From an uncultured Pseudomonadota bacterium (GTDB lineage: Bacteria > Pseudomonadota > Alphaproteobacteria > RF32 > CAG-239): DNA of 64,000 nucleotides. The notes beneath the pieces are model-generated. The model had not been told where the DNA came from. It did no database searches and saw nothing but the letters and a program-made list of their open reading frames with translations. The stretch spans positions 4,784 through 68,783 of the forward strand of contig CABUWG010000001.1 of NCBI GenBank assembly GCA_902495305.1, read 5' to 3'. This document shows positions 61,904-63,134 of the stretch, in pieces (the first letter of the stretch is position 1; each line of letters begins with the position of its first letter). Position numbers and translations under genes: made by a program.

Positions 61904-62395
61904 TTATTCCCAATTTGGAATACAAGGCGAATTTGCTGCTCTATCAGCCAAGATATTATTAACACGAGTCATAATATTCAATTTAATTGCCATTAATTCC
62001 GTATTTCCTCTACCTCTAAAATTCAAAGCATCTATTTCTCTTTGAGTTAATTTTAGATCCTTTTCAATATGAAATTTTACATCTTTCTTGAAACAATTAT
62101 AATATGGTGTATGTGAAAAACGAGAAAGTTCATCATTGACAATTCTATCTATTATAGGATGTGTGCCACTTGAAAAACAAGAATAAACACCAAAAATTAA
62201 AAGAAGCCCAGAACATAACATACTGATTTTCTTAATCGCATTTGATTTATTTTCGTTATCAATTTTCTTATTTCCTTTATTATTTTCTTTATTATCTTCA
62301 CCAAATAAAAACTCCCAGATATTAAATGCTCCATACATAGCAAATATAGCAATAGCAAGCCCAATTATAGCAGAAAAAAGTTCTTCCATTTCCAA
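61904..62395 (-). CDS. Two-TM membrane protein with ~85-aa C-terminal domain
   Basis: 163 aa with helices FSAIIGLAIAIFAMYGAFNIW and ISMLCSGLLLIFGVYSCF separated by a Lys/Asn-rich loop. It starts 6 nt after the upstream SLOG-like gene. Confidence 0.6.
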   Translation of the reverse strand: MEMEELFSAIIGLAIAIFAMYGAFNIWEFLFGEDNKENNKGNKKIDNENKSNAIKKISMLCSGLLLIFGVYSCFSSGTHPIIDRIVNDELSRFSHTPYYNCFKKDVKFHIEKDLKLTQREIDALNFRGRGNTELMAIKLNIMTRVNNILADRAANSPCIPNWE

Positions 62396-62401
62396 AAATC
62401 C

Positions 62402-62851
62402 TTATAAAAAGTTAAATTTTGTCAGTTCAATAACATTAACACCTTTATTTTTTGCTCTTTTACATACTTCAAATGCTCTTCCCTCATATTGATTGTAGGA
62501 AATAATGAAATCCGTATTTTCTATAATCCAATTATTGCGATGCACAATACACCAGCGTTTGTAGCCGATTACCGCTTTGTCTGGAAGAACGACTTCATTA
62601 CAATAACGGCTCCCCTCATTTGCCTCTCCCATATTTGAAACTACAAGGATTATTCTGATACTTGGGTTTTCCTCCCAGATACTCAAAACGGTACGATAAG
62701 CATCGCTCTCATAAGCGCCAATACAGCCAACATAAAAAGTATCCACCTCTTCCTCTTCAATAAGACGAAGGGCTTGCTTTTTTACTTGGTCAATAATGTC
62801 GCTTCTGCTCCATCTGTAATCATTACCAAAAAACGCACAGGATTTACTCAT
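62402..62851 (-). CDS. SLOG-superfamily protein (DUF1273/YpsA-like)
   Basis: About 149 aa from ATG 62851. The layout parallels YpsA/DUF1273: CAFFGNDY.. (first strand), VDTFYVGCIGAYESDAYRTVLSIWEENPSIRIILVVSNM (Gly-rich loop + helix + strand) and TDFIISYNQYEG..GVNVIEL. Recognised by eye only. Confidence 0.5.
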   Translation of the reverse strand: MSKSCAFFGNDYRWSRSDIIDQVKKQALRLIEEEEVDTFYVGCIGAYESDAYRTVLSIWEENPSIRIILVVSNMGEANEGSRYCNEVVLPDKAVIGYKRWCIVHRNNWIIENTDFIISYNQYEGRAFEVCKRAKNKGVNVIELTKFNFL

Positions 62852-63134
62852 TTGAATTTCTTTCAAAATAGAGGTGTTTTATATACGATACATAAACCAA
62901 CGATTATGTTTTCATCTGCCACCATCTATTTAAAAGAAATGAGTTTTCTTATACTAAACCCCTTGAAACCCTTGGTTTTGCTTGTGTTAATGCCATTTAT
63001 ATATTTTTGAATTAAGCGAAAGAAAATAAAACGAATAACTATAAAAAAGGGTTGATTTTATTGTTCATTAAAAATGCCCCTCTATTTCATCATAACTTCT
63101 TGATTTCCCAATAAATATATAAAAAGGGGAAAAG

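Follow-up and report, generated by a model that had tools for sequence, protein, structure and literature searches.

A Predicted Cargo Operon Led by a SLOG Gene and Switched by an Invertase on a Mobile Element of a Gut Alphaproteobacterium

The window analyzed here is a stretch of 64,000 nucleotides from an uncultured bacterium of the Pseudomonadota (Alphaproteobacteria; RF32; CAG-239; contig CABUWG010000001.1 of assembly GCA_902495305.1, positions 4,784 to 68,783). Two short genes on its minus strand encode a protein of the SLOG superfamily and a small protein with a hairpin of two transmembrane helices (2TM protein). The locus is best explained, with a probability of roughly 0.7, as a cargo operon that is led by the SLOG gene, switched by an invertase and carried on an integrative mobile element of a gut alphaproteobacterium. 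The switch itself is an ordinary member of the class of serine-invertase invertons (invertible DNA segments) to which Hin and Gin belong. We did not find its wider architecture described in the literature, namely a conserved SLOG leader followed by a capture slot on a mobile element of Alphaproteobacteria.

According to the proposed mechanism, the product of the invertase gene, which stands back-to-back with the operon across a 285-bp control region, would flip a 167-bp segment of that region (coordinates in Table 1). In the present orientation, a promoter with its -10 hexamer inside the segment would point at the operon, and both the SLOG and the 2TM gene would be transcribed (ON). In the inverted orientation, with junctions predicted to read GAACAAT/TATGT... 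and ...GATTTT/ATCGTTGG, neither gene would be transcribed (OFF). The SLOG product would then be a cytoplasmic protein of the YpsA clade that needs tight control, and the 2TM product a phase-variable envelope protein, membrane-anchored and with its cysteine-containing tail towards the periplasm.

Control Region and Natural Inversion

A divergent serine recombinase of about 200 aa is encoded upstream of the SLOG gene in 24 of the 49 genome loci and in all 11 metagenome loci, the latter having been fetched by protein identity. The distance between the two genes is 281–286 bp, or 266–273 bp in three loci, and about 285 bp in the window, and the control region between them is conserved across loci whose SLOG proteins share 45–83% identity with that of the window. 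Two near-invariant blocks, m2 and m3, stand out in its alignment. They are present in all 24 invertase-linked genome loci, with the exception of L056, which has no m2 at that position, and they are absent from all loci without an invertase; m3 occurs once in the window, where 0.07 copies would be expected by chance. The recombinase of the window, Res201, matches the DNA invertase family phrog_125 (E = 3.2e-38, residues 1–197 of 201), and PF00239 is annotated on its orthologues. No family of Rfam matches the control region of the window. Judging from adjacency and perfect co-occurrence, Res201 is presumed to flip the segment between the two blocks.

Inversion has been captured in nature by sister elements. 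Loci L001 to L006 and L014 encode an identical SLOG protein; in L002 and L004, the 155 bp between AACAAT (in m2) and ATTGTT (in m3) are exactly reverse-complemented with respect to L001, L003, L005, L006 and L014, bar one single-nucleotide polymorphism, and the flanks of the inverted segment are 100% identical over several kilobases. A DNA-pattern scan of metagenome contigs recovered 25 further copies of the left flank, 23 of them in the majority orientation and two flipped (L074 and L097). L097, which is flipped relative to L107, belongs to a second element lineage, and flipped segments hence occur in two element lineages. Since the same junctions are found in four independent assemblies, assembly error is hard to uphold as an explanation. 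The intergenic region is an inverton that has undergone natural inversion in sister elements.

In the window, the cores of the two arms on the plus strand are AACGAT (62899–62904) and ATTGTT (63060–63065), and we infer that this copy, too, still flips. The promoter-like site has its -35 hexamer across the invertase-proximal arm and its -10 hexamer within the segment, a position conserved in the alignment; under the simplest model, the operon would be ON in this orientation and OFF once the segment is inverted.

Several known switches are similar in design. In switches of the Hin/Gin type, the set of genes expressed depends on how the segment is oriented. Hin/hix, Gin/gix, Cin and Pin share with the present locus a small serine recombinase beside a short segment bounded by inverted repeats, with both orientations found in nature. 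However, the segment of the window has only 167 bp and contains no recombinase gene, window-type arms consist of a 6-bp exact core within imperfect repeats of about 12 bp, and the output would be a SLOG-led cargo operon instead of flagellin or tail fibres. Invertons are common in gut bacteria and are often found near cell-surface genes (PMC11892184). The invertible promoters of Bacteroides fragilis (Mpi) likewise combine a gut commensal host, a promoter-sized segment, a conserved leader gene and variable surface-related genes. Among these, the UpxY/UpxZ leader genes of the capsular-polysaccharide promoters are what we take to be the counterpart of the SLOG leader. In contrast to B. fragilis, the host here belongs to the Alphaproteobacteria, the switch is part of a mobile element and has an invertase of its own beside it, a SLOG protein takes the place of a NusG-like antiterminator as the leader, and the cargo includes restriction-modification (R-M) and other defence systems.

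Two other rearrangements were considered and rejected. A 20-nt inverted repeat (61801–61820 with 63053–63072, 80% complementary) brackets the SLOG-2TM cassette and could suggest inversion of the whole cassette; yet one of its arms is motif m2, the other lies in the non-conserved flank of the cargo, and the inversions of the sister elements are confined to the intergenic segment. Excision of a module between the two paralogous invertases of the window (59316–59909 and 63135–63740) was dropped, as the window holds no second copy of m2 or m3. The Res201 gene is itself a mosaic: positions 63340–63580 are 95–100% identical to L018 and only about 50–70% identical to L001/L007, and the relation is reversed at 63640–63700, which suggests recombination between elements inside the invertase gene.

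Table 1. Positions of the switch, its putative operon and the end of the cargo slot in the window.
Feature	Position	Strand	Remarks
Small serine recombinase, DNA invertase type (Res201)	63135-63740	plus	201 aa; divergent from SLOG gene; phrog_125
Promoter-like site TGAACA-N18-TATAGT	63038-63067	minus	Reads towards SLOG gene; consensus scan, 9/12 matches
m2, GAACAATAAAATCAAC	63051-63066	minus	Invertase-proximal recombination arm; from alignment; single copy in window
Invertible segment (inverton), 167 bp	62899-63065		Between invertase and SLOG genes; majority orientation in window
m3, AACATAATCGTTGGTTTATGT / ACAYAATYGTTGGTTTRTGT	62890-62910	minus	SLOG-proximal recombination arm; from alignment; dyad ACAYAA-N8-TTRTGT
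YpsA-like SLOG gene (gene 1)	62402-62851	minus	Open reading frame with ATG start, 149 aa; first gene of putative switched operon
2TM-hairpin gene (gene 2)	61904-62389	minus	ATG start, 161 aa; lineage-specific cargo; Cys-containing C-terminal tail
Convergent ankyrin-repeat gene	61103-61684	plus	Closes cargo slot; Ank_4, Ank_2 and Ank Pfam matches

The Two Genes and the SLOG Family

Each of the two open reading frames (ORFs) has relatives with conservation at the protein level, and both are therefore judged to be genuine coding genes. For the SLOG gene, the ATG at 62851 agrees with the N-termini of relatives (MSKSCAFFGNDY...), and a TTG at 62866 offers an alternative start (ORF 62402..62866). 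For the 2TM gene, the ATG at 62389, with an AAGGA ribosome-binding site 9 nt on its 5' side, is a likelier start than the TTG at 62395 (61904..62395, 163 aa). Between the two genes there are 12 nt if the ATG is used and 6 nt if the TTG is used. Since the ribosome-binding site of the 2TM gene overlaps with TAA, the stop codon of the SLOG gene, co-translation is plausible. GC content is 32% in the region, with 28.5% in the 2TM gene and 36.9% in the SLOG gene; the first 40 kb of the window have 44%. A first-pass annotation of this DNA had described two co-directional ORFs on the minus strand, 6 nt apart, within a defence island; the genes lie as described (the spacing holding for the TTG start of gene 2), and AbiEii, DUF3800, a large serine recombinase and a type I R-M operon that includes an hsdS inversion cassette are found upstream.

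A protein search yielded 50 SLOG homologues. Among 24 aligned relatives (42–95% identical), 16 match PF06908 (DUF1273) at E <= 0.01, over profile positions of about 14–153 of 168. The gathering score of 27.7 bits is exceeded by P0048 (30.9) and P0045 (29.1), and P0041 (27.6) and P0026 (27.2) fall just under it. A six-frame search of the bacterium's own genome with PF06908 found nothing at E <= 0.01. The AlphaFold2 (AF2) model built from the alignment has a predicted local distance difference test (pLDDT) score of 88.7 and a predicted template modelling score (pTM) of 0.87, and displays an alternating beta/alpha Rossmannoid fold. In a Foldseek comparison with the PDB, rank 1 was Bacillus subtilis YpsA (2NX2; E = 3.7e-5, probability 1.00, TMq 0.70), and further matches with probabilities of 0.99–1.00, TM1055 among them, were all SLOG members as well: 6Y01, the molybdenum cofactor carrier 2IZ6/2IZ7 and 1RCU. 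Fold comparison alone found YpsA; sequence searches of the PDB with the family profile and with P0048 did not. In a library of viral structures, 23 matched the model at E <= 1e-3, the best being annotated as DprA-like (top) and as "YpsA-related SLOG" phage proteins.

The motif F-x-V-G-x-x-G-x-x-E is invariant at the beta2/alpha2 junction (F39, V41, G42, G45 and E48), as are K98, R99, R105, N106, E111 and D114 elsewhere in the protein. The strand/Gly-loop/helix layout noticed at first pass is thus borne out by the model and the invariant motif. Moreover, as 16 of 24 relatives match PF06908 and the best fold match is 2NX2, the assignment to the YpsA/DUF1273-like SLOG proteins, originally made by eye, holds: gene 1 appears to encode a divergent SLOG protein of the YpsA clade.

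Like YpsA (2NX2, PF06908/DUF1273, the "YpsA proper" clade), the protein is predicted to have the Rossmannoid SLOG fold, a glycine/acidic motif that follows strand 2 and, in its C-terminal half, the motif RN...E.(T/S)D. Nevertheless, the two share only about 13% identity, and the protein of the window misses the Pfam model. The ligand-binding GxD/E motif of B. subtilis YpsA is formed by G53/E55 (PMC6459960), with a spacing of G-x-E; in the VGxxGxxE of the window protein (G42/G45/E48) it is G-x-x-E, the two motifs being compared by spacing. YpsA of the Firmicutes branch is paired with gpsB, whereas the present SLOG gene has no gpsB neighbour, belongs to Alphaproteobacteria and lies on a mobile element behind an inverton. 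Its neighbours, a serine invertase and variable cargo, exclude only the ypsA-gpsB branch of Firmicutes and not the whole family, which includes a branch from conflict-system contexts (PMC6459960).

Most probably, the SLOG protein would bind or process a nucleotide or a ligand derived from nicotinamide adenine dinucleotide (NAD) or ADP-ribose. This role, and the need for gating, are suggested because overproduction of YpsA blocks division and its family has been linked to NAD/ADP-ribose (PMC6459960), and because viral SLOG domains, most of which fall into the YpsA-like clade, have been proposed to degrade immune signals of the cyclic ADP-ribose type (PMC9503650). Gating is further suggested since the family is preceded by an inverton or, where the invertase is missing, by a conserved structured leader. 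The YpsA-like and DUF2493 SLOG proteins of phages are likewise small stand-alone SLOGs on mobile elements, but the protein of the window has no sequence match to any PHROG, its element is integrative and not a phage, and its gene would be under an inversion switch.

The proposal for viral SLOGs leads to a rival explanation to which we give a small chance, namely that the protein is a counter-defence factor of the mobile element which sequesters or cleaves NAD/ADP-ribose-derived immune signals (e.g., of the Thoeris type), with the switch limiting its cost. The many phage SLOG proteins matched by the model would fit, as would the patchy distribution of the SLOG gene and its place in the backbone of a mobile element. 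However, no Macro or NADAR fusion or neighbour was found, and an integrated element with defence cargo has no obvious need of counter-defence. Expression of the SLOG gene as the leader of a switched cargo operon is the explanation that we prefer.

Cargo Slot Behind the SLOG Gene

Nucleotide identity between the window and six sister elements is lost, down to background level, precisely at the stop codon of the SLOG gene. In the nearest clade, what follows are transmembrane-anchored or lipoprotein ankyrin proteins (511–788 aa), then small secreted proteins or lipoproteins, and also membrane proteins with a SHOCT domain. More distant loci carry an MmeI-type enzyme, HsdR and HsdM, a D12 methyltransferase, McrB with an EVE domain, a Cap4-type nuclease, a HATPase protein and TerB. 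The ankyrin gene that closes the slot of the window has a 36%-identical counterpart in the same convergent position in L018. By this comparison, the 2TM gene appears to be one of many interchangeable cargo genes.

In a sister lineage (L097:2781–2873, L107:7545–7637 and 12 sibling contigs; L104 is of this lineage as well), all that is left of the SLOG gene is a remnant of about 31 codons from its C-terminal end. Invertase, inverton and envelope-protein cargo are intact in this lineage, and both orientations occur. As L097 and L107 share the deletion and differ in orientation, the SLOG gene is needed neither for inversion nor for retention of the cargo.

The variety of the cargo raises the question of whether the SLOG protein acts as a generic sensor or regulator for whatever effector lies downstream, in the manner of a modular defence platform. 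It is co-oriented with and 5' of defence genes in at least 13 distant loci and, within the near clade, tightly coupled to the gene that follows, and SLOG domains reportedly act as ligand sensors in Thoeris ThsA (PMC7272460). Yet the downstream systems are complete and stand-alone (type I R-M, MmeI, McrB-EVE), lie 67–344 nt away and are probably served by promoters of their own; many of the cargo products are lipoproteins or secreted proteins; the SLOG-deleted lineage retains its cargo; and the same slot is found behind invertases without any SLOG gene (L063–L068). A generic sensor is, in our judgement, unlikely as compared with a SLOG-led operon of exchangeable cargo.

The 2TM Protein

Hydropathy analysis places two hydrophobic segments at residues of about 5–28 (Kyte-Doolittle 2.2) and 54–75 (1.7), separated by a Lys-rich loop of 26 aa and followed by a tail of about 87 aa, in agreement with the two-helix membrane hairpin and tail of about 85 aa that were noted at first pass. 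The AF2 model, with helices at 3–31 and 47–75, is of low confidence (pLDDT 68). A word-indexed search of 5.8 billion proteins returned only the protein itself, and an exhaustive phmmer search of 1.84 billion representatives gave seven matches, six of which are true relatives.

Of these, P0058 has the same hairpin (57% identity) with a different tail. The tail of the window protein, which is marked by the motifs YYxC ... FxG(R/Q)xN ... SxC(I/V)xxW with two conserved cysteines, follows a SHOCT domain and one transmembrane helix in P0054 and P0057, one transmembrane helix in P0055, and lipoprotein signal peptides in P0056 (LLGC) and P0059 (LISC). The protein is therefore built from two separately shuffled modules, hairpin and tail. 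Because the same tail domain occurs in lipoproteins, and the Lys-rich loop is likewise in line with the positive-inside rule, a periplasmic or extracytoplasmic position of the tail is probable, with an N-out, loop-in, tail-out topology; a cytoplasmic SLOG protein could then contact only the 26-aa loop.

P0054–P0059 make up a tiny family in which a two-Cys tail domain is carried on interchangeable anchors (lipoprotein signal, SHOCT plus transmembrane helix, one transmembrane helix or 2TM hairpin). Its loci (L063–L072) are usually tandem arrays of SHOCT membrane proteins that diverge from a small serine recombinase and end at a convergent DUF6626 gene. In three of them (L063:1232–1470, L064:1008–1252 and L065:2177–2410), the control regions behind Inv197-like invertases share the blocks AAGGAACAATT and GGAAGAAAACCGTTCAG, which could be the arms of a related inverton, seen in one orientation. 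Besides, the 2TM protein was compared with the transmembrane-anchored ankyrin proteins that follow SLOG in the nearest relatives, as a possible truncated form; the architectures are similar, but the similarity is not significant (E = 2.2; phmmer E > 0.1), and this origin was rejected.

A Structured Leader in Sister Loci

Upstream of the SLOG gene, 18 invertase-less loci share about 200 nt of conserved DNA which can be folded into six helices with 33 pairs (alignment of 238 nt upstream of SLOG; a subset of L024–L060, e.g., L040:5777–5946). In the alignment, 96.1% of the cells are paired, compared with 26–47% when the 3' partners are slid by 1–3 columns; under the same comparison, 17 pairs show compensatory double changes against 3–7, and the covariation score is 0.459 against 0.07–0.10. 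None of 500 shuffles reached the observed values. The G-U pairs lie on the SLOG strand, and an RNA is therefore indicated; all 18 copies have the same orientation. No Rfam family matches the leader, which is a candidate for a new cis-regulatory RNA. Its ligand, if any, could point to what the sister SLOG proteins sense or process. Some invertase-less loci have a tRNA gene within a few hundred bases of the SLOG gene (L038:6738–6825, L054:6612–6698, L043:5594–5666 and L060:7134–7207), which hints that those copies stand at the edge of tRNA-targeted islands.

The alternation of inverton and leader also bears on the idea that the SLOG protein is an accessory factor of the switch, which would control the invertase by binding DNA as DprA does or by setting directionality. 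The order invertase-inverton-SLOG is strictly conserved with fixed spacing, DprA is a DNA-binding protein of SLOG fold, and the top viral fold match is annotated as DprA-like. Against this, about half of the SLOG relatives have no invertase nearby and possess the structured leader instead, and L097 and L107, with the same SLOG deletion, have opposite orientations, so that inversion takes place without a cis-encoded SLOG protein. No SLOG-like partner is known to be needed by Hin/Gin-type invertases. It is accordingly very unlikely that the SLOG gene serves the switch; that the switch serves the SLOG-led operon is the preferred explanation.

SLOG and 2TM Genes Are Not a Conserved Pair

The first-pass annotation had proposed a minimal suicide module in which a SLOG sensor acts on a 2TM pore. 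If the two proteins worked together in this way, their genes would be expected to travel together. No SLOG gene was detected (tblastn, E <= 0.01) in any of the 10 loci (L063–L072) that encode the six 2TM relatives, five of which begin divergently from a small serine recombinase. Conversely, no 2TM relative was found in 60 SLOG loci, and across the about 85 SLOG loci other than that of the window, the protein is encoded only in L134, a near-identical element (97% and 95% identity) and the only other place where the two co-occur. The two families are mutually independent, and although their members would be co-expressed in the window, they form no dedicated sensor/effector pair; on neighbourhood conservation, a criterion which the first-pass annotation had itself set, the suicide-pair proposal fails.

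Comparative genomics by Burroughs and colleagues in 2015 reportedly linked SLOG ligand-sensor domains to 2TM SLATT effectors in predicted conflict systems (SLOG-SLATT, SMODS-SLATT). Similar to these, and to the SIR2-SLOG protein ThsA of Thoeris, a SLOG protein stands here beside a 2TM protein in a defence-rich region, and the two-transmembrane hairpin, a feature of SLATT proteins, is present according to hydropathy and the low-confidence AF2 model. The view of the 2TM protein as a SLATT effector is not sustained, however: it has no match to SLATT_1-5 or any other Pfam family at E <= 1, nor any match in NCBIfam, PADLOC or PHROG, it lacks a conserved SLOG/SMODS neighbourhood and a nucleotide-signal synthase, and its tail is probably periplasmic.

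That the SLOG protein senses a nucleotide signal of infection and opens a SLATT-like 2TM pore to kill the cell (abortive infection) is hence highly improbable. In its favour, the two genes adjoin each other in one direction, with translational coupling probable, gene 1 encodes a SLOG protein and gene 2 the hairpin, the setting is a defence island and the YpsA family has a conflict-context branch (PMC6459960), but the pair is confined to near-identical copies of one element, all other SLOG relatives lack this 2TM protein and all other 2TM relatives a SLOG neighbour, hairpin and tail are shuffled separately with the tail also found in lipoproteins, no adjacent signal-generating enzyme (SMODS, TIR or cyclase) was found in a scan of ORFs and Pfam matches, and a widespread sister lineage has deleted most of the SLOG gene and kept the genes downstream. 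A tempting false lead is thereby removed, as the locus is not a minimal SLOG/SLATT suicide module.

Points Against the Switched Operon

A number of observations weigh against the invertase-switched, SLOG-led operon as the explanation of the locus. All 24 genome loci and 23 of the 25 scanned contigs share one orientation, and switching may therefore be rare. Inversion is seen in sister elements only and not in the window's own copy, whose arm cores match at 5 of 6 positions (AACAAT vs AACGAT). The promoter is a 9/12 consensus match only, and the segment could hold a terminator or another element instead. The SLOG protein of the window matches no Pfam family at E <= 1 and none of NCBIfam, PADLOC or PHROG. 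Finally, in the nearest clade (at least 57% identity), the SLOG gene is in every case tightly coupled to the gene downstream (-26 to +28 nt), with a membrane or secreted protein within two genes, and there may be a looser functional link between SLOG and envelope proteins than the one between a dedicated pair.

The Mobile Element and Its Surroundings

Relatives of the SLOG protein come from uncultured gut and rumen Alphaproteobacteria. The gene is present in 35 of the 121 genomes of the family, with up to three copies per genome and some fragments, a distribution which has the appearance of an accessory, mobile gene. Beyond the window (L013:2792–10449, equal to window coordinates 64008–71665), there follow on the contig an ankyrin gene, DUF3768, a short (194 aa) tyrosine recombinase, a T5orf172 protein, an HTH_17 protein and a large serine recombinase of 560 aa. 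A second large serine recombinase is encoded inside the window at 47933–49678. In keeping with its large serine recombinases, a Rep-O-like protein with iterons and low GC content, the locus belongs to one or two integrated mobile elements.

Inverted repeats of 108 nt (58030–58137/59164–59271, 91% complementary) link the middle of hsdS with a silent half-hsdS in inverted orientation, beside which a second small serine invertase is encoded (59316–59909). The arrangement has the look of an hsdS shufflon with two states, within the type I R-M operon; hsdS invertons are known (PMC7672463). A winged helix-turn-helix protein of 181 aa (59902–60447, minus strand) shows weak similarity to Rep-O, DnaD and Rep3, and just upstream of its gene there are iteron-like direct repeats at 60474–60600, with three copies of TTGGCATCTATATCCG and a 22-nt pair. 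Homologues of this protein are encoded directly upstream of SLOG in L046, L049 and L052.

Implications

The locus would represent a concrete genetic switch in the poorly studied gut Alphaproteobacteria, by which a SLOG protein and exchangeable cargo, for the envelope or for defence, would be gated jointly. With the switch locked ON or locked OFF, there would be an experimental handle on the SLOG family. A bolder and much less probable reading is that gut bacteria possess a portable expression platform under tight gating, of which the YpsA-like SLOG protein is the conserved leader, with an inverton as the gate in one clade and a structured leader RNA in the sister clade, followed by a capture slot for defence or envelope cargo, and that the protein is itself physiologically potent. 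Were this true, its activity could be the processing of an NAD/ADP-ribose signal or, as with YpsA, an arrest of division, and the ON state would reprogram the cell along with the cargo. If the switch works as proposed, phase variation would extend to whole defence systems and to the YpsA-like SLOG family.

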